A program made the position numbers and the translations under genes. This document shows, in pieces, positions 11,928 to 31,671 of a stretch of 64,000 nt of DNA. The notes under the pieces were generated by a model. That model had not been told where the DNA came from, searched no databases, and saw nothing but the letters and a program-made list of their open reading frames with translations. The stretch comes from an uncultured Verrucomicrobiae bacterium (GTDB lineage Bacteria; Verrucomicrobiota; Verrucomicrobiia; Chthoniobacterales; Terrimicrobiaceae), in contig CAVPOC010000001.1 of NCBI GenBank assembly GCA_963706955.1, forward strand, positions 96,001 through 160,000, given 5' to 3'. Numbering within the stretch: position 1 is the stretch's first letter; every line of letters begins with the position of its first letter.

Positions 11928-12004
11928 CATTATCCTGAAAAACAATCACTGTGTTCATGGGAAATTTCCGTGCATCGCGCGCTCTGGCGGACTACCTCAT
12001 CGCG

Positions 12005-13084
12005 ATGGCATCACGAGGTCGATCGGCACGCAGGTCACCAGGCCGATTGGTCGGAGCCTTCCGGCTTGGTTACGTCCCGCTGGTTGACGCCGCGCCCTTG
12101 CTGGTGGCGGAAGCGCTAGGTCTCTTTGCCGATCGAGGCCTGACCGTAGAGCTGAGTGCCGAGCTCGGCTGGGGATCGATTCGCGAAAAACTGGTCTACG
12201 GCGAGTTGGACGTCGCTCATGCTCCGGGTCCCCTTGTCTTTTCGATCCTCTTGGGCACGGATTCGAAGGCGTGCCCGGTGAGCACCGACTTTGTGCTCAG
12301 CTTGCAGGGCAACGCGATAACATTATCACGCCGTTTCTGGGACCGTGGCGTTCGCGACGTCCCTACTTTTCAAGCAATGGTGCGAAACGAAGCACCTCAC
12401 AAACCGGCTTTTGCCGTGGTGGCACGTTTTTCGAGTCATCATTTCTTGTTGCGCAGGTGGTTACGGAGCACGGGCCTAGACCCAGATCGCGATGTCCGTA
12501 TGGTCGTTTTGCCGCCGCCCCTGGTTGCCGAGCATCTAAAGGAGGGGCAGATCGACGGGTTCTGTGCGGGCGAGCCGTGGAACTCTGCGGCGGCGCTTTC
12601 CGGAGAGGGTTGGGTGGTTGCAACGAGCCTTTCACTCGCTCCGCGGCATCCTGAGAAGGTCCTGCTCGTCCGCGACGAACTGATTTTTCGTCAGCCGGAA
12701 GCCTATGGCATCTTGCGAACGGCGATGACGGAAGCCTGTCGTTTCTGTGATCAAAGTGAGAACCGCCGGAGTGTGGCGGACATTCTTCACGAGGCACGCA
12801 TCTTTCCTGTCTCGAAAGAAGTTCTGATGAACTCGCTCGTCGGACCGTTCCACACGGGTGTTGCCGATTTGGGTTCGGCAGAGCCATTTCTCGTCTTTTA
12901 TAGGGATGGCGCGAACGAAGCGACGGAGGAGCGTGCCAAATGGTGCCTGGAGGCCGTCTTGGAGACCGGCGCCTTAAAGGCCGACAGTCGAACTCGTAAA
13001 CTTTGCCTGGAGGCATTCCTCGACAAGCGCGAGCGGAGCCTTCCGCCGTCCGCGCGGACTACCCCGCATTCGACTGCTAAGTAA
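12005..13084 (+). CDS. NasS-like cytoplasmic nitrate/nitrite sensor (NrtA/CmpA fold)
   Basis: GYVPLVDAAPL, WGSIRE, QGNAITLS, DGFCAGEPW and HPEKVL motifs. No signal peptide; sits upstream of the nitrate operon. Confidence 0.8.
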   Translation: MASRGRSARRSPGRLVGAFRLGYVPLVDAAPLLVAEALGLFADRGLTVELSAELGWGSIREKLVYGELDVAHAPGPLVFSILLGTDSKACPVSTDFVLSLQGNAITLSRRFWDRGVRDVPTFQAMVRNEAPHKPAFAVVARFSSHHFLLRRWLRSTGLDPDRDVRMVVLPPPLVAEHLKEGQIDGFCAGEPWNSAAALSGEGWVVATSLSLAPRHPEKVLLVRDELIFRQPEAYGILRTAMTEACRFCDQSENRRSVADILHEARIFPVSKEVLMNSLVGPFHTGVADLGSAEPFLVFYRDGANEATEERAKWCLEAVLETGALKADSRTRKLCLEAFLDKRERSLPPSARTTPHSTAK

Positions 13085-13339: not shown

Positions 13340-14659
13340 ATGGATAAAGACAGGAATCGGGAACTCTCCACGAGTCGCGGCACGTTGAGGGTCGAGGGAC
13401 ACTCGGGCATCACGCGGCGTCGATTTCTGTCGGGATCGGCCAAGGGAATTGGCCTGTCGGCCTTACTGAGTGGACTGCCGACCGGGTGGGTCGGCTCCGT
13501 GTTTGCAAGCGATGCCCCGGAAACGTCGGACCTTAAGATTGGCATCATTGCGTTAACAGATTGTTCAACCATCGTCATCGCGCATGAGAAGGGCCTCTTC
13601 AAAAAGTATGGGATCAGTTCGGTGGTGAGCAAGGGAGCCAGCTGGGCAGCCATTAGGGATGCCCTCTCCAACGGCGATATCCAAGCGACGCACATGTTGT
13701 TAGGCATGCCGATCGCTTCGACGATGGGGCTGGCCGGATCACCAAAGAAGCCGATGATCGTTCCATGGCTGCTAAACCGCAACGGGCAAGCCATCACGTT
13801 ATCAAACAAGTATAAGGGGAAAATCACCGAGGATCCGGCAACGCTCAAGCCGTTCGTTGACGAAGCGAAGGCCAGCGGGATGCCACTTTCGTTTGCCATG
13901 ACCTTTCCGCCGGGGACGCACGCGATGTGGATACGCTATTTTCTCGGCGCAGGTGGGATAAACCCGGATGCCGACGTCGCCCTCATTACCGTTCCACCGC
14001 CGCAGATGGTTGCCAATATGAAGATCGGCAAGATGGATGGGTTCTGTGTGGGCGAACCATGGAACGCTCGCGCGATCGCGGACGATGTTGGTTTTACCGG
14101 CATCACCACCCAGGCAATCTGGAAAGACCATCCTGAGAAGGTCTGCGCGTTCACGGCAGAGTTTGCGGACGCCAATCCAAAAACCATCAAAGCCGTGGTG
14201 AAGGCGTTGCACGAAGCGAGCGTTTGGGCAGACGATTTGAACAACCGGCCGGAATTGGCGAGGATCGTAGCCTCTCCCACCTACATCAATTGCCCGGAAG
14301 ACGTTATTCTAAGCCGCCTCCAGGGGAAATACATCATGGGTGACGGCCGCAAATTTCGCGATCCCAACTACATGATTTTTAGTGAGCGCAACTGCAACTA
14401 TCCGCAACCGAAATACGCCAAGTGGTGGCTGACGCAGTTTCGTCGTTGGGGGTTCGTTGAAGCAGCCCCCGACTACGAAGGCATATCTAAGCAGGTGATG
14501 CGGGCAGACATCTATGAAGAGGCGATGAAGGAGCTTGGCTATTCTCATGCGGGCCTTAGCGATGCGTCGGAAACGCTCTTCGACAACGTTCCGTTTGATC
14601 CCAAAGGCGACCTGGAAGCCTATGCTAAGAGCTTTTCCGTTCATAACCTAAAGGGTTAA
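13340..14659 (+). CDS. nrtA: Nitrate/nitrite ABC transporter substrate-binding protein with Tat signal
   Basis: TRRRFL Tat motif; IIALTDC, NGQAIT, FPPGTH, GFCVGEPW and DHPEK motifs. Confidence 0.88.
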   Translation: MDKDRNRELSTSRGTLRVEGHSGITRRRFLSGSAKGIGLSALLSGLPTGWVGSVFASDAPETSDLKIGIIALTDCSTIVIAHEKGLFKKYGISSVVSKGASWAAIRDALSNGDIQATHMLLGMPIASTMGLAGSPKKPMIVPWLLNRNGQAITLSNKYKGKITEDPATLKPFVDEAKASGMPLSFAMTFPPGTHAMWIRYFLGAGGINPDADVALITVPPPQMVANMKIGKMDGFCVGEPWNARAIADDVGFTGITTQAIWKDHPEKVCAFTAEFADANPKTIKAVVKALHEASVWADDLNNRPELARIVASPTYINCPEDVILSRLQGKYIMGDGRKFRDPNYMIFSERNCNYPQPKYAKWWLTQFRRWGFVEAAPDYEGISKQVMRADIYEEAMKELGYSHAGLSDASETLFDNVPFDPKGDLEAYAKSFSVHNLKG

Positions 14660-14661
14660 AG

Positions 14662-15978
14662 ATGGCGGACCTCGCTCATCCCCAGGGAAGCGGACACAGG
14701 TCCGATAAGCCGGTTTCCCTTCGTTCGACGGAGCTTTTGGCCCGACGCGGCGAAGCTCTCGACCTTTCCCGGCTGCTTGCACGAAGTCGCTCGCCTCAGC
14801 TGTCGGTAGCTGGCGATCCCGAACTCGAGCACCTCACGTTCGGAATTCTCCCGTTGACCGATTGCGCCCCCATTGTCATCGCGCATGAAAGGAAGTTGTT
14901 CGAACGGTCGGGCATCACCTCAAGCGTGGCCAAATTTGGGAGCTGGACAGCCAGCCGGGATGAGCTCTTAAGCGGAAGAGCGCACGCAGCGCAGATGCTC
15001 TTCGGCATGCCTGTCGCCGCGGCCGTCGGCAAACTCGGCACGGAGCATAGACCGCTCGTTATTCCCTGGATCCTTAATCGGAACGGCCAGGCGGTCACCA
15101 TATCGGTCAGACACTCTCGGCGGGTAAGTTCAAGCGCCCGCGACCTTCGCGCCTTCGCGCAGGAGTGTCGCGAGAAGGGTCGGCCGATGGTCTTTGCCAT
15201 GACGCTTCAACCGGGGACGCACGCTATGTGGCTTCGCTATTGGCTCGCGTCCGGAGGCATCAATCCGGATACCGATGTTGCTCTGATCACGATCCCCCCG
15301 CCCATGATGGTCGCGAACATGCGGGCGGGGCGGCTTGACGGATTTTGCGCGGGCGAACCATGGAATGTGAGGGCCATCGAGGAGGAACTTGGTTTTACGG
15401 CGGTGCTCAGCGAGGAAATCTGGCCCGATCATCCCGAAAAGGTCCTCGCGTTCACGGAGGATTTTTCCGAGGCCTACCCGAATTCGGTGAAGGCAGCTCT
15501 CAAAGCCCTCCACGAAGCTTCCCTCTGGTGCGACGAGGAAAGTAACCGCGATGAGTTGGCAGCAATTCTCGAGCAACCCCAATACCTTGCTTGTCCTGCC
15601 AAAACCATCAAGTCACGCCTGGGCCCGGTGGTCGACTGGGCGGGCGGTCGCACCGCGCAGAATCTGCGCGGTTTGACGTTCTCTCGTCGCGAATGCAACT
15701 ATCCACAGCCGAAATTTGCCGTCTGGTGGTTGTCGCAATTTCGCCGCTGGGGCATGCTGCCCGCCGCGCCTGATTATCTCGGGGTGGCCACGCGCGTGAT
15801 GCGCCCCGATTTTTACGAGGCTGCCATGAACGAGCTGGGCGTCCCACATGGGCGGCCGGAATTTACTTCCGAAACCCTCTTCGATGGCAAGGTTTTCGAT
15901 CCGGCGCAGCCGGAGAAATACGCCGCAGAATTCGAGATTACCGCTCTCAAGCGAAAGCCGGCACTCCATGAATCATGA
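14662..15978 (+). CDS. Second NrtA-like protein without an evident export signal
   Basis: Closely parallels the upstream NrtA (NRNGQA, PGTHAMW, CNYPQPK). The N-terminus is hydrophilic. Confidence 0.82.
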   Translation: MADLAHPQGSGHRSDKPVSLRSTELLARRGEALDLSRLLARSRSPQLSVAGDPELEHLTFGILPLTDCAPIVIAHERKLFERSGITSSVAKFGSWTASRDELLSGRAHAAQMLFGMPVAAAVGKLGTEHRPLVIPWILNRNGQAVTISVRHSRRVSSSARDLRAFAQECREKGRPMVFAMTLQPGTHAMWLRYWLASGGINPDTDVALITIPPPMMVANMRAGRLDGFCAGEPWNVRAIEEELGFTAVLSEEIWPDHPEKVLAFTEDFSEAYPNSVKAALKALHEASLWCDEESNRDELAAILEQPQYLACPAKTIKSRLGPVVDWAGGRTAQNLRGLTFSRRECNYPQPKFAVWWLSQFRRWGMLPAAPDYLGVATRVMRPDFYEAAMNELGVPHGRPEFTSETLFDGKVFDPAQPEKYAAEFEITALKRKPALHES

Positions 15979-16859
15979 AAGAATCAATCCTTAAGAAAAT
16001 TGATTGGCTGATCCTCCCGGCGATCGGCATCGCCGTTTGCATCCTGCTTTGGAACTTGATTGCCGGCAAGGAAGTGAGGAAGGAAGCCCTGGATGACTTT
16101 GGGGACAAGGTGGTCAAGGTCCAGCGGGTTGGAGTTTCCGCGGACCTTCCCTCGCCAGCCGAAACGTGGATGAAGAGCAAGCCCTACATCCTTGAGCCGT
16201 TCGCCAAGCGCGGCGAGTTGGATCAGGGGATTCTAAGCTTTACGTGGCTCTCCTTGAAATTGGTCGCGCAAGGCTACGTCATCGCTCTGCTTGTCGGCAC
16301 GCCGATCGGATTCTTGCTGGGTCTTTCCAGGACCTTCGCGAAAATGTTCGACCCGATCTTCCAAGTGCTTCGTCCGGTCTCCCCTTTGGCATGGCTGCCG
16401 CTTGGGATGGTGCTCTTTCTTGGCGCGAAGCTAACGATTCCCGGGGTTGGCCTCAGTTACTCGGCCTCGGACCTCGCCGCCATTTTCACGATTGCGATCT
16501 GTTCGATGTGGCCAACGGTTCTAAATACCGCGGTGGGCGTCCGCGCAATTCCTCAGGATTACCTTAACGTTGCCAAAGTCCTTAAACTCTCGAGGACCAA
16601 GACGCTTTTCAAGGTCCTCTTGCCGGCCACATTGCCGTACATGTTTACGGGATTTCGCCTTTCCCTGGGGATCGCCTGGCTCGTCATCGTGGCTGCGGAA
16701 ATGCTCACGGGGAAGCCGGGAGTCGGCGGCTTTCTCTGGCAGCAGTACAATGCCCTAAGCTATGCCCACATTATCTTGTGCATCCTCACGATCGGCATCG
16801 TCGGCTTCGTGCTCGACCGGTTAATGAGCATGGTCGAAGCGCAGTTTAAGACCGCTTGA
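15975..16859 (+). CDS. nrtB: Nitrate ABC transporter permease
   Basis: FQVLRPVSPLAWLP, WPTVLNTAVGV and IAWLVIVAAEML motifs. Confidence 0.9.
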   Translation: MKESILKKIDWLILPAIGIAVCILLWNLIAGKEVRKEALDDFGDKVVKVQRVGVSADLPSPAETWMKSKPYILEPFAKRGELDQGILSFTWLSLKLVAQGYVIALLVGTPIGFLLGLSRTFAKMFDPIFQVLRPVSPLAWLPLGMVLFLGAKLTIPGVGLSYSASDLAAIFTIAICSMWPTVLNTAVGVRAIPQDYLNVAKVLKLSRTKTLFKVLLPATLPYMFTGFRLSLGIAWLVIVAAEMLTGKPGVGGFLWQQYNALSYAHIILCILTIGIVGFVLDRLMSMVEAQFKTA

Positions 16860-16863
16860 GATC

Positions 16864-17781
16864 ATGACCGTGCTCGAAGTTAAGAACGTCTCCAAGGGGT
16901 TTGGTCCAAAGGGCAAGCGCACCGAGGTGCTCGAAGACATTACCCTTCAAGTCGAACGGGGGGAATTTCTCGCAATCATCGGCTATTCCGGCGCCGGCAA
17001 AACGACGCTGATGTCCCTGCTGGCCGGCTTGATCAAGCCAGACACCGGTTCGATCAAGTTGCACGGCAAACCGATGGAAGGACCTGGGCCAGACCGTGGG
17101 ATAGTTTTTCAAAACTACTCGCTGCTCCCGTGGCTGACCGTCTATGACAACATTGCGCTGGCGGTGGACCAGGTTTTCTCCAACTGGTCCGCTGAGCGAC
17201 GCCGTCAGCACATCGAAAAGCAAATTGCCACGGTGAAGCTGACCCCGGCGCGCGACAAGATCCCTCGCGAACTCTCCGGCGGAATGCGCCAACGAGTATC
17301 CGTGGCACGGGCGCTCTCCCTCCAGCCCGAGCTGCTTTTGCTTGATGAACCGCTCAGCGCTCTGGATGCGCTCACCCGCGCTAATCTGCAGGATGAAATC
17401 AACCGGATTTGCCAGGAAGAGAGGAAGACGGTCATTCTGATCACCAATGATCCCGATGAAGCCATCCTTCTGGCGGATCGGGTCATTCCGCTGACCGCCG
17501 GACCGCGCGCCACCCTCGGACCTTCCATCCCCGTAACCATCCCCCGTCCGCGCTCGCGCAGGCTGATCAACGAGAGCTACGATTTCAAACAGACGCGCAA
17601 TGAGGTGATCGAGTACCTTCTCATGGCCACCGATAAGCGCAAGGTCGCTATAAGTAAGAAGCTTATCTTGCCGGATCTTTTGCCTGAGGACCTCACCGAG
17701 CCGCGCTCGATCTTTGGCAGAAAACGCCGACCGCGCAGGCGCAGTGAGCAGAAGCGCGAGACGGTCGAGGTGGCCGTATGA
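16864..17781 (+). CDS. nrtC: Nitrate ABC transporter ATP-binding protein (H-loop His replaced by Asn)
   Basis: [23 protein letters not shown] and ITND motifs. Confidence 0.88.
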
Positions 17782-18642
17782 GTGATCGGGCTTATCTCGA
17801 ACTGTGGGATCTTACCAAGAGCTATCCCACCCGACAGGGTGAGGCGGTGATCGTTAAGAACATTAGCTTCAAATTCCGCAAGGGAGAGTTCGTTACGATT
17901 ATCGGCCACTCCGGTTGCGGCAAATCAACGATCCTAATGATGGTGGCCGGACTAAGCACGGTGACTTCCGGCGGCATCGTTCTGGCGGGGAAGGAGCTCA
18001 ACGGGCCTGGTCCTGACCGCGGTGTTGTTTTCCAGTCGCCTTCGCTTCTTCCATGGATGAGCGCCTTCGAAAACGTCATGCTCGGGGTAGATCAGGTATT
18101 CCACACGGCCGAACGTCACGAGCGGCGACTTATCGGCGAATACTACCTGACTCTCGTCGGACTCGCCGACTCGATGCATAAGCTTCCCGCAGAGCTTTCC
18201 CAAGGCATGCGCCAGCGGGTGGGCATCGCGCGTGCCTTTGCCCTTGCTCCGAAAATGTTGTTGCTCGACGAGCCATTTGGAATGCTCGATTCCCTCACGC
18301 GATATGAGCCTTCAGGAAGTTCTGATCAGTCTTTGGCGTCGAGAGCGGATTACGGCCATGATGGTCACCCACGATGTCGATGAAGCGCTCTTTCTCAGCG
18401 ACCGGATCGTTTGCATGACCGATGGGCCAGCGGCCGGTATTGGCGAGATCGTGGAAGTCGATTTCCCCCGACCTCGCTTTCGCAAGGAAGTGATGGAGCA
18501 TCCCGATTATTACAAGCTTCGCGCACAGCTCATCGAATTTCTCGAGCTTCGCGCGCATCGTCCGTCTGGAGGGGTTGCCCCACCCGGTGTTGAGAGGAGC
18601 CCGGAGTCGAAACAAGAGCAGCGCGCGATTGCGATGACCTAG
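17778..18642 (+). CDS. nrtD: Nitrate ABC transporter ATP-binding protein (frameshift near 18310)
   Basis: [17 protein letters not shown] and LLDEPFG, then VTHDVDEA in the next frame. Confidence 0.88.
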
Positions 18643-18659: not shown

Positions 18660-20304
18660 ATGACTAAGATACCTGTGATTCCCGAAACGGCACCATTCGA
18701 TGCCATGCAGCGCATGTGGCTGAACGGCTTTCTCGCGGGTCTGTTCAGCTCAGAGCCCACCGCGATCGCGGTGTCGGCGGCCACCTCGTCGTCGCTGGGT
18801 CCATTGCTCTTTTTGTTCGGCTCTCAAACGGGAACTTCCGAGGGACTCGCACGACGCTTCGCGAAGGAAGCCAAGAAGGTGGGCTTTGAGACGCGCGTCA
18901 TCGGAATGGAGAGCTATTCGACCGATCGATCTTACTAAGGAAAAGCGTCTGATCATCATCACAAGCACCTACGGAGATGGGGAGATGCCCGATAATGCGC
19001 AAACCTTTTGGGACTATCTAAAGAACGGGACCGCTCCGCGCCTTGAGCATCTGGAATTTTCGGTCCTGGCCCTCGGCGATCGCAACTACTCTCAATTCTG
19101 TCAGGCAGGCAAGGCCTTCGACGCGCGGCTTGAGGATTTGGGAGCCAAGCGGATCCATCCTCGCACCGATTGTGACGTGGATTGCGAGGGTCCTTCAGTG
19201 GAGTGGTTCAACGGTTTACTCAGGTCGTTGGAGGGTGCTGTCCCTTCTGCGGGGACGAGTCAAAACGCCGTCACTTCCACCTCAACGGTTGAGAGCACGC
19301 CTTCCTTTGGCAAGGCCAACCCATTCCTTGCGGTTCTGAAGACGAATCGCGTTTTGAATGCCCCAGGTTCTGCAAAGGAGACGCGGCACCTCGAGATCAT
19401 CCTCGAAGGTTCCGGACTCGAGTATGAGGTCGGCGATGCCTTGGGAGTCGTGCCGACCAACTGTCCGGATTTTGTCCGCGAGATCTTAGACGCTGCCGGT
19501 CTTGACGGTGAGGAGGCCGTGAAGGCCCCCGATAACGAGGAGATGCCTTTACGGATGGCCCTGTTACGAAAGTTTGACCTGAAGTCCTTTTTGGCCGATC
19601 TGCCGGCAAAGGCTGCCTCAGCGGCGGATTTTGCGGCGCCGTTGCGAAAGCTGCAGCCGCGTCTCTATTCGATTTCCTCAAGCTCGAAAGCCCATCCGGG
19701 AGAAGTGCATCTCACCGTGGCCGTCGTCCGCTATGAATTGAATGGTCGTGCTCGCAAGGGCGTCTGCTCGACGTTCTTTGCCGATCGGGTCGGAGCGGAC
19801 ACTAAGGTCCCTGTATTCGTGCACCGGTCGCCGAGCTTCAAACTTCCCGCCGATGGATCCAGGCCCATCATCATGGTGGGCCCCGGCACGGGCGTTGCTC
19901 CATTCAGGGCCTTTCTCGAGGAGCGCCGGGCAGTCGCCGCGACCGGAAGGAACTGGCTTTTCTTCGGAGATCAGAAAGCTCTCTGCGACTTTCTCTATCG
20001 TGAGCAGCTCGAGGCGATGAAGCAGGATGGACTACTGACGAGGCTCGACACCGCCTTCTCCCGCGATCAACCAGAGAAGATCTATGTTCAAGATCGGATG
20101 ATCGAAAACGCTGGTGAGATCTGGTCGTGGCTGCAGGAAGGAGGATACTTCTATGTCTGCGGCGATGCTCAGCGCATGGCTAAGGACGTCGATGCCGCGC
20201 TCCACAAGATCGCCGAAACGGCCGGTCAGCTCTCAACGAACAGGCCGGGGAGTATCGTCAAGCAACTTAAGTTTGAGAAGAGATATTTGCGTGATGTGTA
20301 TTAG
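18660..20304 (+). CDS. CysJ-like diflavin (FMN/FAD/NADPH) reductase (frameshift near 18920)
   Basis: FGSQTGTSE and TSTYGDGEMPDNA flavodoxin motifs; RLYSISS, GVCS, GPGTGVAPFR, YVCGDA and RYLRDVY FNR motifs. Confidence 0.88.
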
Positions 20305-20379
20305 AAAACAAAGCCAGGCTGGCCTGTTGTTGGGGACGTGTGCGCTCCCTCACGTGCTCTTTATGCCATGTGAGAATCG

Positions 20380-22120
20380 ATGACGATTACGCCGATCAAA
20401 GAGATTGCGGGGAAACCATTGAACGAGGAGCAGACGACTTATCTGACGGGCTTCTTCGCAGGGATGGCGCAGCGTGCGGTCGTCTTTGCCGATTTCCTCT
20501 CCGAAGCTAAGGGCGCGGCAAACTCTTCCTAAAGCCCCAGGGGAGAAAACAGTGAGGAGGAAGTCCAGCTCACCGCGGAGGAGCGCATTAAGAATGAGGA
20601 ACACCCTCTCGATTCTTACTATCGCCTCCTCGAAAATGCGAGAAGCAACCAGGCGCCGGACAAGGAGGAAACTTATCGATTCAAATGGAATGGCCTTTTT
20701 TATCTCTCTCCTGTGAAGGACGCCTTCATGGCGCGCCTTCGAATTCCGGGAGGGATCGTGAAAACGTATCAGCTTCGCGGCCTTGCCCAGACAGCAAAGG
20801 ATCTGACGAGCGGTTACTGCCAGATTACCACGCGCGCAAACTTCCAGATGCGTCTGATTCAGCCCAAGGATGCCCCCGAAGTGCTTAGACGCATCCAAGC
20901 CGTTGGACTTCATACCCGCGGCACCGGAGCTGACAATATCAGAAACCTGACGTCGAACCCGACGGCCGGAATCGATCCGCAAGAGCTAATCGATTGCACC
21001 CCCTATGTGCGCGAACTCGCAGACTTCATCCTTTCGCATCGCGAATTCTATAATCTGCCGCGCAAGTTCAACATTGCGTTCGACGGAGGAGGGTTGATCG
21101 GGTCGGTTGAGGATACGAACGACATCGGTGTGAAGGCCGTCAAGGTCGAAGACGATGTTTTCTTCCGCGTTGCCCTTGGAGGGGCGACCGGCCACAAGTC
21201 GTTTGCGCGTGATCTCGGCGTGATCGTGCCACCGCAGGAGATTGTCAAGGTAGTCATCGCCATTGTTCGCGTCTATGTGAGGAACGGCAATCGCGGAGAT
21301 CGAAAGAAGGCGCGCCTTAAGCATCTTCTCGATAAATGGACCATGGAGGAATACCTCGCGCGAGACGGAGAAAGTCCTCGGCGGCCAGCTTAAGCCGCAG
21401 TCCCTTCGACCCGAGGGCGATTGTCTACCCTGGCGCTGAATTGCCGCATAGCCATATCGGTGCTTACCCTCAGAAACAAACGGGTCTGCACTATCTCGGT
21501 GTGGCATTGCCGGCGGGACAGATTACGCCCGCGCAGATGTTTCGCGATTGCCGATCTGGCGGATAACTACGCCTCCGCCGAGATCCGGCTGACCGTCTGG
21601 CAGAACTTTATCATTCCAAACATTCCCGAGGCCTATGTCGAAACTGTCAAGAAAGCAGTCCGCAAGATGGGCTTTGACTATCAGCAATCGAATATTGCCA
21701 GCGGCGTCATCGCGTGCACGGGCAACAAGTATTGCAAGTTTTCCTCCACAGATACCAAAGGACATGCCTTAGCTTTGATCAAATATCTCGAGAAGCGGAT
21801 CAAACTCGATCAGCCGGTGAATATCCATTTTACCGGCTGTCCGAACTCATGCGCCCAACACTATATGGGGGACATCGGGATGTTGGGAGCGAAAACCCGA
21901 GACGGTCGAGAGGCGTATCATGTCTTTGTTGGCGGAGGATTTGGGACGAACGCGGCGTGCGGGAGACAGATTTACCAAGCCCTGCCGTTCGACGAATTGA
22001 ACGGTGCTGTGGAAAAGATTCTCCTCGCTTACCTCAAGCACCGCCAGGGCTACCGAGTCATTTCAGTCCTTTACGATGCGACACGATGTAAACTCTCTGC
22101 AAGTGCTTTTCCAGGAATGA
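20380..22120 (+). CDS. nirA: Siroheme nitrite reductase, NirA family (in-frame TAA at 20530 plus frameshifts near 21360, 21540 and 22050)
   Basis: [42 protein letters not shown] and [10 protein letters not shown] motifs. Confidence 0.87.
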
Positions 22121-23725
22121 CCGGACTTAGCCTTGAAGTTAATCTCATTGATGAACTTCTTGCCGAGCAACAACGGCTCACGCCTGTTGAACGCTTCGCG
22201 AAAAGGCACGATCGTGCAGATTTTCCTGCTCAGGCGCACTACTATCGCGATTTAATCCCCTCCTCGCTGCCTGCACGGCGGCAACAATACGCGTTTGCCG
22301 TCGATCTCGACGTCTGCTCCGGCTGCAAGGCTTGTGTCAGTGCTTGCCATTCGCTGAATGGACTTGAGGAGGACGAAACCTGGCGCGACGTCGGACTGAT
22401 TACCGGCTCCGAAGCCGGAAAGCCGTATCTGCAGACGGTCACCACGGCTTGCCATCATTGCCTTGAACCCGCCTGCCTCGAGGGTTGCCCGGTTCTCGCT
22501 TACGATAAGCATCCCGAAACCGGAATTGTGCGCCATCTCGATGACCAATGTATCGGCTGCCAATACTGCACCATGAAGTGCCCCTACGACGTGCCGAAGT
22601 ATTCGCACCGTCTCGGGATCGTCAGGAAGTGCGACATGTGCACGGATCGTCTGGCTAGTCGGTGAGGCTCCCGCTTGTGTGCAGGCTTGCCCGCACGAAG
22701 CGATCGCCATTCGGCTGGTGGATGTTGCCGAAATCAACGCAGCGGCGTCGGCGGGCGCGCAGATCGTTCCGGGCGCATTTGATTCCGGCTATACCAAACC
22801 GACGACGAAGTATTTCTCGAAGAGAGGAATTCCGAAGAATGCCGAACCCGCCGACGCACATGCGCTGCGTCTGGAACACCCCCACTGGCCATTGATTATC
22901 ATGCTTCTCTTCTCGCAGCTCGCCGTGGGTATGTTTGTCACGAGTGCAGTCGATGGCGATGGTGAGTGGATCGTCGTCACTGTCCTGTGGCTTTGGCAGC
23001 GACAATCGGGTTTGCTACGCTTAACGCCGGGCTGGGTGCATCGGTTTTTCACCTGGGACGGCCGCTCGGCGCCTGGAGGTTTTTCCTTGGCCTGCGGACA
23101 TCATGGATGAGCCGGGAGATTCTGGCATTTGCAATTTTTGCGGCCGTCGCATTTCTTGGCACCGCGCTTTGCTGGATTGCTCCGGCCAGCGCTCTACGCC
23201 CGAGCCGGGCTGGCCGGCGCAGCCGCTGGTCGGCCTCCTGGCGGTCTTTACTTCGGTAATGATCTACGCGGATACACGCCGCGCGTGGTGGGCGCTAACT
23301 TCGACTGCGGCGAGATTCTACGGTGCGACCGTTATCCTGGGCTTAACCGCGGTCGCTGCGGTCTTGAGTCCGATCGCGGCGTCTGAGGCGGCGTTTCGCG
23401 TCGCTATGGCTCTCTCGATCGCGGCGCGGACAATATTTTTCGTCTGGGAAACACTAAGCAGCGTGCGAGCCGTGGCGGATCCTTCCAGTCCGATTCACCG
23501 CTCCGAGAAAACGATCCGCACGCTGCTGCCGTGGTTTGGTCGCGTCCGCGTGACCGTATTTGTTCTAGGAACACTTGTTTCCGTGGATGGCGCTCATCAC
23601 GAGCGCACCGGTGGCAATCGCTGCCGCAGGTCTGGCGCTGGCGCTTTCAGTGCTCGGTCATGTGCGTCGAGCGCTTCGGATTTTTTACAGCTGTGACGGC
23701 CCCCCGCATGCCCGGAGGCGTATGA
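22117..23725 (+). CDS. Fused DmsB-like 4x[4Fe-4S] domain and DmsC/YnfH-like membrane anchor (several frameshifts)
   Basis: [37 protein letters not shown] and KCDMC...ACVQACP; then [16 protein letters not shown] and SVFHLGRP...TSWMSREI with TM helices. Confidence 0.8.
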
Positions 23726-25984
23726 CGCAACTCAGGGAAAAAAGGGATAGCGTTGCGCGATTGGAACCGCTGCGTGAAGCGTTTGCCCTTCGAGCTTGGA
23801 ACGGACCTTTAACCGAAGAACTCATCCGCAACCCTGGTAAATTTGGGCTTGGGCAGGTGCCGGCACGACTGGCGCCGGATGCGACCACGACGATGGTCTG
23901 TGGCTTCTGTTCGACTGGCTGCGGCCTTAATATTCATATGCGCAACGGACAGGCGATCAACCTAAGTGCGGACAGCAGCTACCCAGTCAATCTGGGAATG
24001 GCCTGTCCCAAGGGATGGGAGGCGCTCACCCCACTGTCCGCTCCCGATCGCGGCACCACCCCAATGGTCCGGGCGGTCCGCGGCGGTCCCCTTGAAGCGT
24101 GCGATTGGGAGCGCGCCCTGATCTTGTTCTGCGAGCGATTCAAAGAGCTTCGGCGCAACTATGGTCCGGAGTCGGTTGCTTTCCTGAGCACAGGACAGAT
24201 CACTACTGAGGAGATGGCCTTCCTCGGATGTCTGTTCAAGTTCGGCATGGGATTTGTGCACTGTGACAGTAACACCCGCCAGTGCATGGCCACATCGCAT
24301 GTCGCCTACAAAGAGTCCTTCGGCTTCGACGCGCCGCCCTTTACCTATGCGGATTTTGAACTCTCGGATGTGTTGGTCTTTGTCGGGGCGAATCCGTGTC
24401 TTGCTCATCCCATCATGTGGCAGCGCGTCATGCGCAATCCGAAAAAGCCTGAAATTCTCGTGGTCGATCCTCGCACCACCGAAACTTCGATGGCGGCGAC
24501 GCAGCACTTTTCCATTCGGCCGAAGTCGGACCTGGTGCTGCTTTACGGTCTTGCGAATCTGCTGATCGCCAGCGATTCGATCGACCGCCCTTTCATTGAT
24601 GCGCACACTTCCGGCTTCGAAGAATTTGCTCGCTTTGTCAGCGCGTTCACCCCGGAGCGTGTCGCTCGGGAAACCGAACTGAGTGTCGCCCAGTTGGAGC
24701 GATTTGCCCGAACAATTGGACAGGGACAGGCCGTCTCCTTTTGGTGGACGATGGGAGTGAATCAGGGCCACGAATCGACGCGGACGGCGCAGGCGATCAT
24801 CAATCTGGCGCTAATGACGGGCAACATCGGCCGCCCTGGAACTGGTGCAAATTCGATTACCGGGCAGTGTAATGCGATGGGCTCGCGGCTGTTCGCAAAC
24901 ATCACCAGCCTTCTCGGTGGCCACAACGTGGACGAAGAGATGCACCGCCGTAAGATCTCGAGAGTATTGGGAATTCGAGAAGAAGCTATCCCTCGTGGCC
25001 CTTCGATGGCCTACGATCAAATCGTGCGAAGCATCGCCGATGGCAGGATCAAAGGTCTCTGGGTCATCGCGACCAACTCATCCCACTCGTGGATCCATCA
25101 AGATGACTTTAACAACCTCATCAACAAACTCGATTTCCTCGTTGTGCAGGACATGTATCCTACCACCGAGACCGCACAGCGAGCGGATCTCTACTTTCCG
25201 GCAGCGGGCTGGGGCGAAAAGGAAGGCACCTTGATCAACTCCGAGCGCCGAATCGGACTCGTCAAGAAAGTGCGACGCGCGCCGGGGCGGGCACTTTCCG
25301 ATTTCCATATTTGCCAGTTGATCGCGCACTATTGGGGATGTGAGGGGATGTTTGCACGGTGGACTTCGCCCGAAGCTGTCTTTCAAACCTTGAAAGCAGT
25401 TTCTGAAGGGATGCCCAACGATATCACTGGCGTCCGCGACTATGGCATGATCGATGAATGTGGCGGCATCCAATGGCCGCTCAGCGATGCCGATGTCTCT
25501 CGATTTGCCAGTGCTAAGTTTCAAGTTCCGTCGGAAAGGCGATTGTTCGAGGACGGCAAGTTCTTTACCCCTGATCGTCGGGCACGTTTCGTTTTCGAAC
25601 AACCACGCATGGCACCGGAGCAAGTCGATGCAGAATATCCTTTTCTCCTCATGACCGGACGCGGGACATCGTCGCAGTGGCACACCAACACCCGGACGGG
25701 CAAATCGGATGTGCTGCGCAAGCTTTATCCCCCCAACTGCTATGTGGAAATAAATCCTCACGATGCTGAGAAGTTGGGCATTCGGAAAAACATCCGTCGT
25801 GAGAATCGCATCCCGGCGTGCGCAGGTTCGAGCGACGGCATTTGTGACGCCGACGATCCGACCTGGGCAGCTCTTCATTCCCATGCACTATCGCGAAGCA
25901 AACCGGTTGACCTTTCCGTCCTTTGATCCCTACTCCCGTCAGCCGTCTTACAAGGCATGCGCGGTGCAGGTTGAAGCGATTTGA
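23722..25984 (+). CDS. Assimilatory-type nitrate reductase catalytic subunit, Mo-bisPGD with [4Fe-4S] (frameshift near 25785)
   Basis: CGFCSTGC...[38 protein letters not shown] and [10 protein letters not shown] motifs. No Tat signal. Confidence 0.88.
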
Positions 25985-26057: not shown

Positions 26058-26624
26058 CTACAAATCGTCAGGGGAGTTCCAGTTGGTAAACAGAGCCGAT
26101 TGCGAATCGGAAATCTCCTTTGCGTTCATCATTCCTGCTTTAAGAGCTTCGTCAATGAGACGCTGAAACGAGCGATCGTTGCCTGCGAGAATCTCTTCGA
26201 CAAGCGGAAGGATTTTGAGCGGGTAGACCGCAGCTGTCCCGCAATAAAATCCCTCATGGAGCGGCACAGTTCCGGCGCATTCAGATTCTTCGATTAATTC
26301 CCGAAGAAAGTTGACCGTTATTCGTGGCATGTCCACGGCCAGCGTCACCAAAAAGCCGGAGGCAGTCTGCCGCAAAGCGGCTTCAAGACCACCAAGAGGC
26401 CCGAGGCCGGCAACCCGATCATGAACGAACGTCCACGGTCCTGGTGGGAATTCCATACCCGACTGCACTGAGAAGAAGAGCTGATCCGGACCGAGTTTGG
26501 CCAACTTGTCGATCTGAAAGCGCCACATTGGCATGCCTTCATACTCGATCGAAGCCTTGTTAGTTCCCATGCGACTCGATCGGCCACCGGCGAGCAAGAC
26601 AGCGGCGAATTTTTCATGGTTCAT
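26058..26624 (-). CDS. mobA: Molybdenum cofactor guanylyltransferase
   Basis: VLLAGGRSSRMGTNKA, GPLGGL, AVDMP and NWNSPDD motifs. Confidence 0.9.
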   Translation of the reverse strand: MNHEKFAAVLLAGGRSSRMGTNKASIEYEGMPMWRFQIDKLAKLGPDQLFFSVQSGMEFPPGPWTFVHDRVAGLGPLGGLEAALRQTASGFLVTLAVDMPRITVNFLRELIEESECAGTVPLHEGFYCGTAAVYPLKILPLVEEILAGNDRSFQRLIDEALKAGMMNAKEISDSQSALFTNWNSPDDL

Positions 26625-27087
26625 CGACCTTGAGGATTCCATCGGTGAGGATTCTCGCGCGGAGGCCGCCGCGCCCTTTCATGGCGGCTTCCGCGCCTTC
26701 GCAAAAGGCCTGATTCATCCAGGAACAGGGCGCAGATTCCTGCGTTCCTTCAAAGAACACTCCTTGAACCTCGAACTCTTTACCAATCCAGAAGTTTAGA
26801 TCAATGCCACGCGTTATAACATTACGGCGGAAGGCGCCGGGATTTTTGTCTGTGACCCCGAAGCGACGGCAGAGATCCACATACGTCTCCCACGCGAAAA
26901 AGGTGATCTGGCCCTTGTAATCGTTCTTATGGTCGAAATAACGATCGCCGACGAGTCCCTTGCCAGCAATGCACTCGACCTGAGCCACCGAAACGCTAGG
27001 ATGCTCGCCCGCGGGAAGACCGTAATGTCCGACAAAATTGTGAGCCGGCGAAATATAGATGGCGGCAATTTGCACGTGTGAAGCCAT
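26614..27087 (-). CDS. MOSC domain protein
   Basis: GLVGDRY, QIT, FRRNVIT, PC and GRGGLRARILTDG motifs. Confidence 0.85.
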   Translation of the reverse strand: MASHVQIAAIYISPAHNFVGHYGLPAGEHPSVSVAQVECIAGKGLVGDRYFDHKNDYKGQITFFAWETYVDLCRRFGVTDKNPGAFRRNVITRGIDLNFWIGKEFEVQGVFFEGTQESAPCSWMNQAFCEGAEAAMKGRGGLRARILTDGILKVDEP

Positions 27088-27279
27088 GCTAAAAAAACTA
27101 TTTGATTCTCGGCAAACTGCGCCGTTTTTCTTGAGAAGTTGTTCGAGCTTGTCCTTGGTTCCTCTGCGAACTCCTTGTCCGCTCTTCTGAAGCACCTTCA
27201 GCTCCAGCGACTTTAGACCGGACGGGGATTCTTTGAACTTTACGGGAGTGGGCTTAGAGCGAAAATTGCACTGCATTCG

Positions 27280-28431
27280 ATGAAACGTCCAGAGGCCGGC
27301 AACTTCCCACGGCGAGATCCTGAGAGGCAGACCTTCGCCGGCCTTATCGTCCGCGAACGAAATCCAGAGAACCTCGAGTTTCCTTTTTCTACCCTAAATA
27401 GTTTTCTCACTTCCAAGGAACAGTTCTTCGTTCGCAGTCACTTCGGAGTTCCGAAACTGGAGCTGGACGCTTGGCGACTCGTGATCGAGGGACGGGTGGA
27501 GGAGCCGTATGAGATCGGCTTCGATGAATTGCTTCGGATGCCATCGCGCACCGTGACGATGACCTTAGAATGTGCGGGCAACAGCCGGATTTTTCTTTCA
27601 CCGAAGGTAGGAGGGGTGCAGTGGGAACTTGGTGCGGTCAGCACTGCAGAGTGGACCGGCGTGCCGCTCGCAGCTATGCTCAAACGAGCTGGAGTCAAAG
27701 CGGGAGCGACGGAGGTCGTGCTCGAAGGCGCGGACAATGGTGCTATCGCGAAGGAACCTGTATCGCCGGGGAAAATCCACTATGCGCGCAGCCTTCCACT
27801 GGCCAAGGCGCTGATGCCCGAAGTGATTCTCGCCTACCGCATGAACAGCGAGCCTTTGCCGCCTTCGCACGGTTTTCCGCTGCGCGCGATTGTGCCTGGA
27901 TGGTATGGAATGGCATCAGTCAAATGGTTGACGCGCGTCGTTGTCACGGATGGTACTTTCCGCGGCTACTTTCAAACTTCAGATTACTCCTTCTGGGAGC
28001 AGCGTGACGAACTGCCCATCCAATTGCTGCCCGTGAGCGAGGTTGAAGTGAAGGCTGAAGTCGCCCGGCCTGCCTTGCACGAAATCATCGGGGCCGACAC
28101 GATCTACCGGGTTTATGGCGCGGCATGGACGGGAGAGTCTGAGATAAGCAGAGTGGAGATGAGCACTGATGGAGGAAACCGTTGGGAAGAGGCGCAACTG
28201 TTAGGTGAATCAGTGCCATATGCCTGGCGTTTTTGGGAGTATTATTGGCGGACGCCAGGACAAGCTGGAATCTACACGCTGATGGCGCGCGCGACGGATG
28301 CACGCGGTAACGTGCAGGCCATGCAACGCGACGCTCATCGTGGATCATACATGATCAGCCATGTGCAGCCGATCGAGGTCGAGGTTCGAAAGCTCTCTGC
28401 ATTACCCTCAACCGACAGCTACGCAATATGA
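27280..28431 (+). CDS. Sulfite oxidase family molybdoenzyme (cytoplasmic)
   Basis: FFVRSH, LECAGNSR, WTGVPL, HGFPLRAIVPGWYGMASVKWL and a C-terminal dimerisation domain. Confidence 0.88.
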   Translation: MKRPEAGNFPRRDPERQTFAGLIVRERNPENLEFPFSTLNSFLTSKEQFFVRSHFGVPKLELDAWRLVIEGRVEEPYEIGFDELLRMPSRTVTMTLECAGNSRIFLSPKVGGVQWELGAVSTAEWTGVPLAAMLKRAGVKAGATEVVLEGADNGAIAKEPVSPGKIHYARSLPLAKALMPEVILAYRMNSEPLPPSHGFPLRAIVPGWYGMASVKWLTRVVVTDGTFRGYFQTSDYSFWEQRDELPIQLLPVSEVEVKAEVARPALHEIIGADTIYRVYGAAWTGESEISRVEMSTDGGNRWEEAQLLGESVPYAWRFWEYYWRTPGQAGIYTLMARATDARGNVQAMQRDAHRGSYMISHVQPIEVEVRKLSALPSTDSYAI

Positions 28432-30536: not shown

Positions 30537-31671
30537 TCAACGTTCGTCGTTTGGATTACGAGCAAGCTCCACCTCGAGGTTGCCATTCTGCAAGTTGACT
30601 CTTGTTCCGAACTGTCGGCTCTCACGAGTGAGAACTTTGCTAAGCCAGGCGGCGTCGGCCTCTGAAGCATGCCGCAGGCGGAATTGGAAGATCTGAAGCG
30701 GAACGATCCTTAGGCGAACGAGCTGACCGGTCTGCGCGTCGAGCGTCGGGAAGTACATCAGCGCAAGGTCGTCGCGATAGGATTCGTTTCCCTCAATGCC
30801 TTCGTAGTCATTCAGGAAATCTCCGGCGCCATAAACGATGAGTTTGCCTTTGTAGACATCCAACGGACGAACGTGGTGTGACGAATGGCCGTGAACAATA
30901 TCGACCGCCCCGGAATCGATCAGCGCGTGAGCGAACTCGATCTGTTCATCGGGAACGTCATATCCCCAGTTGCTTCCCCAGTGCACGGAGAAGATCACCA
31001 GATCCTCGGGGCGGCTTTGCCGTCTGATTGAGTCGACGGTCGTGGCGCGCGTTTCCGCTGAAAGGTCACTAAGGAAATTCACTCCTGGAGAAGAGGGACC
31101 AGCCGCCCACGATTCCGGCACGCCGGCGGAATCCATTGCATATCCAAAGACGAGCAGCCTCGTGCCAGGCGCCACTTCAAGAATCGCTGGAGCAGCCGCC
31201 TCCGCCGCTGTCTCGCCCGCTCCGGCGGACTTGATGTTCGCCCGGCGGAGAGTTTCAAGGGTTTCACCGAGTCCACGGAAACCGAGGTCTGCCGTGTGGT
31301 TGTTAGCAACAACGCAGCAGTCGATTGCGGCTGCCTTGAGCACGCTCGACGTTCTCTGGGTGCATTCGGTAATGAATTCCCTTGCCCGGCCAGAAATCAT
31401 CGCTCCGGGTGATACTTGTTTCCAGATTGACGATTCGTGCGGCAGGCCGGATCTCCTTGAGGATCTCGAGTGCTGACCCCCAGACATAACGGTGGTCCAC
31501 GTTGCGCGGAATGAGGCCGTTGCGCTTCTCGGCGAGCGTTACGTAGATCCGTGCGTCCCTCACGTAGGGTTCAAAAAGCTGTGGCGGACTGGCTACGGGC
31601 AGAATTTGATCGATTCCGCGACCGGTCATAAGATCTCCGCAGAAAAATAATGTAACCAGCGCGCGCGTCAT
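30537..31671 (-). CDS. CapA family metallophosphoesterase-fold protein (frameshift near 31345)
   Basis: GDLMTGRGIDQ, NLET, ANNH, VHWG, GHSSHH and YGAGDF motifs. Confidence 0.85.

Follow-up and report, generated by a model that had tools for sequence, protein, structure and literature searches.

A fused iron-sulfur and DmsC-type anchor protein beside a Nas-like nitrate reductase in Verrucomicrobiota, with quinol and NADPH as candidate electron supplies for nitrate assimilation

Here we describe a nitrate assimilation operon of an uncultured Verrucomicrobiae bacterium, found in a stretch of 64,000 nucleotides which we call the window (positions 96,001 to 160,000 of contig CAVPOC010000001.1, or G000:C1:96001-160000 in the genome analysed, which has 4.16 Mb and is 92.5% complete). 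Behind a nitrate importer lie a CysJ-like flavoprotein, the nitrite reductase NirA, a four-cluster iron-sulfur (FeS) domain fused to a DmsC-type membrane anchor, and the molybdenum (Mo) subunit of a nitrate reductase. An initial annotation, made from the sequence alone, had proposed that nitrate reduction is driven by quinol through the anchor and nitrite reduction by NADPH through the flavoprotein. Our analysis shows that the system is real and widespread, an uncharacterised variation on the design of iron-sulfur molybdoenzymes.

The operon and its reading frames

The operon runs in the order nitrate-binding protein, nrtA-nrtA-nrtB-nrtC-nrtD, flavoprotein, NirA, FeS-anchor fusion and Mo subunit (Table 1). 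Pfam and NCBIfam identities agree with the order and domains first annotated, and the ATGA start/stop overlaps said to couple the last three genes are both read in the sequence, at 22117-22120 between NirA and the fusion and at 23722-23725 between the fusion and the Mo subunit. Within the importer, ntrB passes its family cut-off (224.7 against 209) and ntrCD stays just below (290.9 against 291.8); the NrtD gene is broken by one extra base near 18309. We infer the NasS label of the first protein from the position of its gene. The nearest named relative, locus L001, is a Terrimicrobium metagenome-assembled genome (MAG) with 95% nucleotide identity. Near-identical sequence is present in soil and rhizosphere metagenome runs, and there are no RNA runs among those listed as containing the region.

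Table 1. Genes and leader segments of the nitrate operon and the adjoining convergent pair, in window positions
Feature	Position	Strand	Basis
NrtA/NasS-like nitrate-binding protein	11951..13084	+	Pfam NMT1_2 E 3.5e-70
Nitrate ATP-binding cassette importer (two NrtA, NrtB, NrtC, NrtD)	13340..18642	+	NMT1_2; ntrB; ntrCD
CysJ-like diflavin (FMN/FAD/NADPH) reductase	18660..20304	+	Flavodoxin_1, FAD_binding_1, NAD_binding_1
Flavoprotein leader helix	18681..18755	+	related to E. coli CysJ residues ~28-45 of octamerisation leader
NirA siroheme/[4Fe-4S] nitrite reductase	20380..22120	+	PRK09567 711 bits against cut-off 523
NirA leader helix, then flexible linker	20404..20478	+	homologous to flavoprotein leader, hhalign
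Fusion of DmsB-like four-[4Fe-4S] domain and 8-helix DmsC/NrfD-type anchor	22117..23725	+	motifs, DmsC alignment, model
Mo-bisPGD nitrate reductase catalytic subunit, N-terminal [4Fe-4S]	23722..25984	+	Pfam, Cys-Met motifs
MobA-like guanylyltransferase and MOSC-domain protein, convergent on operon	26058..27276	-	NTP_transf_3, MOSC

All four genes from the flavoprotein to the Mo subunit carry frameshifts in the window; most are single surplus bases, as for example near 18922, 22052, 22656, 22953, 23194, 23223, 23584, 23664 and 25793. The FeS-anchor gene is left in four open reading frame (ORF) pieces, and the raw ORF 21421-22665 joins the C-terminal half of NirA to the FeS domain; we reject a NirA-FeS fusion as an artefact of the frameshift. 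One explanation for these breaks would be that the operon is a decaying pseudogene cluster. Short-read contigs from four of four runs are however free of such extra bases (long pieces are about 96-99% alike; 12 of 33 indels listed). Single-base indels against a 95%-identical MAG number 15 in 6,659 bases of the 5' part of the operon and 166 in 76,328 bases elsewhere, with 15 of the 20 contigs fetched aligned, which places the operon at the genome background. The window genes serS and typA are also truncated or split, although rpoB is intact. For these reasons we conclude that the frame breaks are a property of the assembly and not of operon decay, and we reject the pseudogene reading. The same kind of error has truncated or split serS, typA and one further gene at 1674-2522, 6993-8424 and 30537-31671.

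The window copies being frameshifted, protein analyses were performed on intact proteins from the relatives L004 and L001, in which the flavoprotein has 547 residues (L001), NirA 577 (L001) and the fusion 534 (L004). The FeS-anchor protein had been described as a single ORF. This does not hold for the window copy, but it does for the relatives: in the loci used for our counts, the best 80 of 488 relatives matched by an FeS-domain scan, FeS and anchor form one ORF in 76, are split in one and are cut by a contig end in three. In accurate sequence the two parts are intact, and neither separate nor decayed genes.

The anchored nitrate reductase

The FeS domain has four cluster motifs with 16 invariant cysteines in 66 of 66 aligned sequences, and the anchor aligns with Escherichia coli DmsC across all eight helices (E 5e-21). 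An AlphaFold model of the fusion (predicted local distance difference test, pLDDT, 87) matches ActC (Z 22.0, root-mean-square deviation 3.3, 276 aligned) and PsrC (Z 18.9, deviation 4.2, 246 aligned), and cytochrome bd subunits score in a similar range against the anchor model. A Foldseek search found no solved chain that spans both domains, which is no proof of absence. In the account of Calisto and Pereira (PMC8076601), the quinone site of DmsC includes His65, Ser82 and Glu87, that of SoeC includes Ser85, Arg271 is a channel gate, and His65 mutants of DmsC, cited there, block quinol oxidation. The equivalents of all five residues are invariant in 66 of 66 fusions, which is consistent with the link to quinol proposed at the outset.

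One of the more striking properties of the anchor is its distribution of charge. The raw Lys+Arg count has a mean of 13.7 on the FeS side but of 2.8 across the membrane, in the same direction in 66 of 66 sequences, and the same segments of E. coli DmsC have the opposite bias, with 5 against 8. A twin-arginine translocation (Tat) motif was found in 0 of 54 Mo subunits, as already annotated for the window reductase, and in 0 of 66 fusion leaders, and was detected in the DmsA control; a hydrophobic leader is likewise absent from both proteins. Because of the inverted charge bias and the missing export signals, the complex of fusion and Mo subunit should face the cytoplasm, in line with the topology first suggested.

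Conservation of the anchor goes closely together with that of the reductase, as a survey of gene neighbourhoods in the loci and in two genome samples demonstrates. The Mo subunit begins less than 300 nt after the anchor in all 71 loci with room for it, and overlaps the anchor by at most 8 nt in 40 of the 52 loci with assigned starts. Among 251 Verrucomicrobiota genomes, 22 carry the fusion and the identical 22 carry the Mo subunit above 1,000 bits, with the fusion directly upstream in 21. Thirteen more genomes of this sample have weaker Mo-subunit matches alone; three were inspected, and the other ten, which may be formate dehydrogenases, are not counted as nitrate reductases. The fusion is present in 15 and a sister type in 5 of 201 planctomycete genomes (the phylum of G251). 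Leaving out four weak or partial fusion matches, 19 of these 20 directly precede a Mo subunit and the twentieth sits on a 2-kb contig. One myxococcal locus (L060) has the fusion too. A wider profile search passed 7,995 of the 8,000 candidates scored, with both domains in all of the 120 matches listed, and in none of 842 plasmid records is 80% of the fusion query covered.

The Mo subunit has Pfam domains Molybdopterin, Molybdop_Fe4S4 and Molydop_binding, and the four cysteines of its N-terminal [4Fe-4S] cluster are invariant. Its nearest solved structure is NapA (328 bits), and a DmsA model reaches 125 bits. The motifs NTRQCM and GQCNAMG are found in 54 of 54 Mo subunits, aligned to the Cys-Met site of NapA (2jio). 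In formate dehydrogenases a His, as a rule, follows the Mo-binding Cys or Sec, as opposed to the Met here; on the Cys-Met site in 54 of 54 sequences and the surrounding nitrate genes we reject the formate dehydrogenase reading. The protein ends 13-32 residues past its last core motif in 54 of 54 cases, and there is no C-terminal BFD, FAD or NADH module. The closest plasmid-borne relative, with 43% identity, is a soluble Cetobacterium enzyme accompanied by a small FeS subunit and an FAD oxidoreductase. In a quick tree, in which four long branches including Cetobacterium were flagged and which we do not use for evolutionary direction, the anchored enzymes form a group with their sister anchored clade and the Cetobacterium enzyme, apart from classical NasA, with support of 95.

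Several variations on this complex were observed. In the sister clade (L084:5478-9363, L100, L101 and L102) the fusion has the same quinol-site motifs and no conserved N-terminal extension, and the reductase beside it departs slightly in its active-site motif. The fusion (window 22117-22280) and the Mo subunit (23722-23890) each have a conserved N-terminal extension of about 50 residues, and the unaccompanied reductase L083 is without that of the Mo subunit; the two extensions may be mutual docking elements. At three loci (L084:636-4019, L060:14506-17839 and L021:3705-7165; the FAD genes of the first two identified by domain scan) an FAD/NADH and BFD protein, then a membrane-tethered multiheme cytochrome c, adjoin the anchored reductase.

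NirA and the leader it shares with the flavoprotein

The flavoprotein belongs to PRK06214 (468 bits against a cut-off of 432). Its family profile scores 612 bits to the E. coli sulfite reductase flavoprotein (6efv), and the CysJ model TIGR01931 gives 590, below its cut-off of 668. NirA, whose four siroheme/FeS cysteines are invariant in 48 of 48 sequences, has plant nitrite reductases as nearest solved structures (274 bits, against 82 for the sulfite reductase hemoprotein CysI) and reaches 129 bits against a cut-off of 757 in the CysI model TIGR02041. The description of the two as a sulfite-reductase-like pair of flavoprotein and hemoprotein is therefore apt for the CysJ-like flavoprotein; its partner is a nitrite reductase of plant/ferredoxin type and not a CysI relative. 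The two genes are adjacent in 47 of the 48 loci that contain both. They are also found as a pair without the anchor, and in alphaproteobacteria (Methylocystis, Sulfitobacter); on a Sulfitobacter plasmid the flavoprotein accompanies NirA with no nitrate reductase nearby.

Both proteins start with a related helix. Compared on N-terminal pieces, the NirA and flavoprotein leaders match in hhalign with a probability of 96.8 (E 2e-10); an internal match from the comparison of whole-length profiles was spurious and was discarded. Leader cross-scores exceed 10 bits in 45 of 50 NirA and 44 of 44 flavoproteins and in 0 of 4,248 background ORF starts of the genome, and the leader motif is present in 44/48 NirA and 36/37 flavoproteins. 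Of the held-out proteins, six of six in the NirA family have the leader (five with an adjacent flavoprotein), against 0 of 7 other siroheme enzymes. The AlphaFold model of NirA has a helix at residues 16-31, followed by a linker with pLDDT below 50 over residues 33-59. A hidden Markov model of 44 leaders scores E. coli CysJ with 13.6 bits (E 0.007) over the stretch containing Tyr39 and Phe40, which match the two aromatic residues of the motif in the alignment and are two of four residues reported as required for the CysJ octamer (Walia et al., bioRxiv 10.64898/2026.04.08.717228). A complex prediction with two copies of each leader peptide, run without controls, gave a score of 0.16 (mark 0.32) and is counted neither for nor against binding. 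The shared leader suggests a tethered NADPH:nitrite reductase; on whether the leaders themselves mediate the binding of NirA to the flavoprotein we consider the chances even.

Siroheme nitrite reductases are described as using transiently bound ferredoxin (Ghazi Esfahani et al., PMC11195156). In Bradyrhizobium diazoefficiens, bll4570, annotated as sulfite reductase (NADPH) flavoprotein, is co-induced with nirA bll4571 (log2 4.8 and 5.0; PMC4926349 Table 3). The two have consecutive locus numbers, and we liken them to the pair described here by annotation, not by sequence. The name bll4570 has 0 occurrences in the available text of PMC4724949, a study of B. japonicum NirA.

A separate sulfite reductase is encoded by a cys cluster of the genome (C3), and elsewhere there are a stand-alone half of CysJ of the ferredoxin-NADP reductase (FNR) type (G000:C8:828228-829382) and a separate flavodoxin-like match (C8:438607-439032), which are perhaps the donor of the C3 enzyme. 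Because of these genes the operon flavoprotein would not be needed for sulfur assimilation. The flavoprotein itself varies in length and domains. In the lineage of the window (18660-20304; L001-L006, L028) it is about 45 residues shorter than in relatives through a deletion in the connecting domain, and the planctomycete flavoproteins L053, L055, L069 and L078, of PRK06214 type with 700 bits, keep the leader and are without the flavodoxin domain.

Electron supply, alternatives and known systems

The comparison of loci indicates which function the anchor may replace. The anchor-less reductase beside NirA and flavoprotein in G035 has a fused NAD(P)H module (Pyr_redox_2 and BFD in Pfam), that of G080 has the same length and score and is taken by its length to have the module too, and that of Methylocystis has a separate one. 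Since anchor-less reductases in such loci bring their own NAD(P)H input, the anchor appears to occupy the donor slot. NirA is found in 53 and NirB in 6 of the best 80 loci (the three NirB checked are NirB-NirD fusions), never both, and nrt genes are visible in 33. As the nitrite reductase partner varies, it is with the nitrate reductase that the anchor travels. There are thus two separable modules, anchor with reductase and NirA with flavoprotein. The idea of one hybrid system holds insofar as the parts co-occur here, but the combination is not obligate, as the six NirB loci show on one side and the anchor-less NasA of G035, G080 and Methylocystis on the other.

The genome encodes two MqnA/D-family and two MqnC/E-family proteins of the futalosine menaquinone route, and no MenD or NirB above cut-off was found in it. 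The potential of menaquinol is about -75 mV and that of nitrate about +420 mV. A split supply is plausible because electron flow from menaquinol to nitrate is far downhill, while siroheme requires a low-potential donor. In the scheme we favour, nitrate would be imported by NrtABCD and menaquinol would bind to the inverted anchor close to its cytoplasmic face, at a site of the DmsC type. From there electrons would travel by way of the four [4Fe-4S] clusters in the fused domain and the [4Fe-4S] cluster of the Mo subunit to the molybdenum bis(pyranopterin guanine dinucleotide) cofactor (Mo-bisPGD), where nitrate would be reduced to nitrite on the cytoplasmic side. As the quinol and Mo sites would share that side, there would be no redox loop as in NarGHI, and energy would be conserved upstream, where dehydrogenases reduce quinone, for example a proton-pumping NADH dehydrogenase; an ORF at C2:291241-292935 is presumably NuoG-like. 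Nitrite would then be reduced to ammonium by NirA, its siroheme being fed from NADPH through the FAD and FMN of the CysJ-like protein, to which NirA is probably joined by the common N-terminal helix, co-opted from the self-assembly leader of CysJ.

Judged each on its own, and from sequence comparisons, quinol is a likely donor for nitrate reduction, and NADPH, by way of the flavoprotein, quite a likely one for nitrite reduction. For the two supplies together we estimate a probability of about 60%. Several observations weigh against this scheme, which is drawn from sequences and models. The 80 loci are the closest of the 488 matches and so are related, not independent. The fusion and reductase of G081 lie on separate contigs, and G071 has, besides a sister-type pair, one reductase of the same clade without an adjacent fusion. 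Loops on the FeS side are longer, which inflates the raw Lys+Arg counts, and the DmsC control, which limits this effect, is a single sequence. The Mo subunit stays below every NCBIfam nitrate-reductase cut-off (439 against 1000 for haloarchaeal NasA, 402 against 1100 for NasC), its best model there being Fdh-alpha (452 against a cut-off of 666), and the Cetobacterium relative indicates that this catalytic type can run without quinol. On the side of nitrite, the match of the leader to E. coli CysJ is weak at E 0.007 and covers the second helix only, L089 has a leader-bearing NirA with no flavoprotein within 15 kb, and B. japonicum NirA, proven by deletion, is treated as ferredoxin-dependent (Cabrera et al. 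2016, PMC4724949).

The quinol:nitrate chemistry might also be as proposed and its chief role be to drain the quinol pool, for redox balance or survival at low oxygen, with assimilation using the by-product nitrite as with a dual-role NarGHI. NarGHI of Mycobacterium tuberculosis is reported to fill both roles (PMC4326299), the soluble relative resembles the fermentative nitrate reductase of Clostridium ljungdahlii in its three-gene make-up (by gene content, not sequence), and the additional FAD/BFD protein and multiheme cytochrome c of some loci would fit. It seems nevertheless unlikely, given that the anchored pair sits with NrtABCD and an assimilatory nitrite reductase in the numbers given above, often with overlapping codons, and that a quinol site on the same side yields no redox loop. 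We are more doubtful about a supply in which the FeS domain, and through it the nitrate reductase, receives electrons from NADPH by way of the flavoprotein, or from a soluble ferredoxin or flavodoxin, with the anchor serving as a tether or as an overflow to quinone. The flavoprotein and the fusion are neighbours in many loci, electrons enter the Cetobacterium enzyme through its FeS subunit, and CysJ-like modules are described as fused to NasA in other bacteria (PMC4013037). This would leave it surprising that the anchor is retained without the flavoprotein in six NirB loci, none with NirA, that on the Sulfitobacter plasmid the flavoprotein tracks NirA, and that the quinol-site residues are invariant.

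Another arrangement would keep the anchored module as proposed and make NirA an ordinary ferredoxin- or flavodoxin-dependent enzyme, the flavoprotein reducing a diffusible carrier and the leader serving as a homo-oligomer tag. The likeness of the NirA core to the ferredoxin nitrite reductases of plants, which are closest to it, speaks for this arrangement, as do the use of the term ferredoxin-dependent for B. japonicum NirA (PMC4724949) and the homo-assembly driven by the E. coli CysJ leader (bioRxiv 10.64898/2026.04.08.717228). We consider it improbable all the same, as the leader is missing from all seven other siroheme enzymes compared and the flavoprotein has its own flavodoxin domain (in the planctomycete loci another N-terminal module), so that no extra carrier is needed. 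The least credible alternative, very improbable in our view, is that the Mo enzyme has another substrate, for example as a formate:quinone oxidoreductase, or that the operon is decaying. Fdh-alpha being the best NCBIfam model, the label 'formate dehydrogenase iron-sulfur subunit' which JGI gives to many fusions, and the frameshifts in all four window genes would favour it; the Met after the Mo-binding Cys as in NapA (against the His of formate dehydrogenases), the context of nitrate uptake and nitrite reduction, and the indel evidence contradict it.

The favoured scheme has precedents for each of its parts, namely quinol-fed assimilation by NarGHI, the inverted anchor of SoeABC, the CysJ-NasA fusions and the soluble clostridial enzymes. 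With DmsABC and PsrABC the anchored enzyme has in common a Mo subunit, a four-cluster protein and an 8-helix anchor with the fold of PsrC and with His65 and Glu87 kept. It differs in the fusion of the B and C subunits, the inverted charge bias, the Nas/Nap-like catalytic subunit and the absence of Tat export towards the periplasm. The overview of NrfD-anchor complexes in PMC8076601 lists no nitrate reductase, and SoeABC, for which an inverted DmsC-like anchor is expected, is the only cytoplasm-facing complex of the family listed there. SoeABC, likened here by description and not by Soe sequences, shares the predicted inverted anchor, the cytoplasm-facing subunits and the set His65/Ser82/Ser85/Glu87; it has separate subunits and oxidises sulfite to reduce quinone, whereas here a nitrate-reductase site and the opposite electron flow are predicted. 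The enzyme is thus like an inverted DmsABC or SoeABC with a Nas active site and belongs, by these tests, to neither family.

NasA, NasC and NarB (Klebsiella, Paracoccus, Bradyrhizobium NasC-Flp, cyanobacteria) are also cytoplasmic Cys-ligated Mo enzymes from nrt/nir operons, with NAD(P)H flavoproteins or ferredoxin as reported donors (PMC4724949). Our Mo subunit has their Cys-Met and GQxNAMG motifs and a cytoplasmic nitrate context, and differs in its scores below the equivalog cut-off, the absence of an NAD(P)H, BFD or FAD module of its own and its separate clade in the quick tree. NarGHI has an Asp-ligated NarG-type subunit and a heme-b NarI anchor with a redox loop, as opposed to the Nas-type subunit and heme-free DmsC-type anchor found here. 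That of M. tuberculosis is likewise a membrane-bound, quinol-fed nitrate reductase that is assimilatory too (PMC4326299). The clostridial and fusobacterial soluble enzymes, of which that of Cetobacterium groups on its long branch with the anchored clade, are reported to use an FeS subunit and an FAD oxidoreductase and have no membrane anchor (PMC9124969). For nitrite, E. coli CysJ8-CysI4 is similar in that a diflavin reductase with a related leader feeds a siroheme enzyme. The differences are that the hemoprotein here is of NirA type and that both partners carry one leader helix; the E. coli hemoprotein has no leader, and docks to the FNR domain with the first 80 residues of its own chain (PMC11195156). 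The alphaproteobacterial PRK09567 NirA and PRK06214 pairs, as in Methylocystis and Sulfitobacter, are the same gene pair, and both family cut-offs are passed here; NirA is genetically proven in B. japonicum, with ferredoxin assumed as its donor.

In the literature searched, with incomplete coverage and mostly without subscription papers, we found no description of a Nas-type reductase on an inverted DmsC-type anchor, which accords with the initial annotation, nor, with the same incomplete coverage, of a NirA-CysJ pair. Textbook accounts name NAD(P)H or ferredoxin as the donors of assimilatory nitrate reductases. A broader reading, somewhat short of an even chance and so tentative, is that the operon combines a third way of supplying electrons to nitrate assimilation in bacteria, from menaquinol through an inverted NrfD-type complex, with a self-assembling NADPH:nitrite reductase co-polymerised by leaders, and that this route prevails among the Verrucomicrobiota that use nitrate and is common in Planctomycetota. 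The conserved Glu/Arg path of the anchor may then move protons. If correct, an inward-facing, quinol-fed form would couple the assimilation of nitrogen to the respiratory chain in bacteria of the Planctomycetota-Verrucomicrobiota-Chlamydiota group that are abundant in soil and water. The NrfD-anchor family would gain a nitrate reductase and, after SoeABC, a second cytoplasm-facing member, which would be a natural test of whether these anchors move protons regardless of orientation. The NADPH:nitrite reading would re-assign the electron donor of rhizobial NirA, so far assumed. Since the genes are automatically annotated as DMSO (dimethyl sulfoxide) reductase or formate dehydrogenase, the use of nitrate by these phyla is probably scored wrongly at present.

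Some further genes are of interest around the operon and elsewhere. The MobA-like and MOSC proteins that converge on the operon are, we infer, a probable cofactor supply for it, and they adjoin a sulfite-oxidase-family Mo enzyme with no evident signal (window 27280-28431). A search of the genome for ANTAR/NasT gave no match, and its control likewise matched nowhere, so that the negative carries no weight. In nitrate clusters of two relatives a PP2C phosphatase/Ser-Thr kinase fusion stands beside a NarK-like transporter (L076:8092-9840, by domain scan; L083:6026-7756, by likeness of the translation) and may be a regulator that replaces NasT. A second module, which lies outside the window at G000:C6:103575-111643, contains genes named by reading their translations: a globin or flavohemoglobin-like protein, a Crp/Fnr-like regulator, a membrane protein, a 764-residue Mo subunit with a Cys-Met site, an FeS subunit, a Rieske-like protein and a major facilitator superfamily transporter. 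This module is possibly another membrane-linked nitrate reductase.

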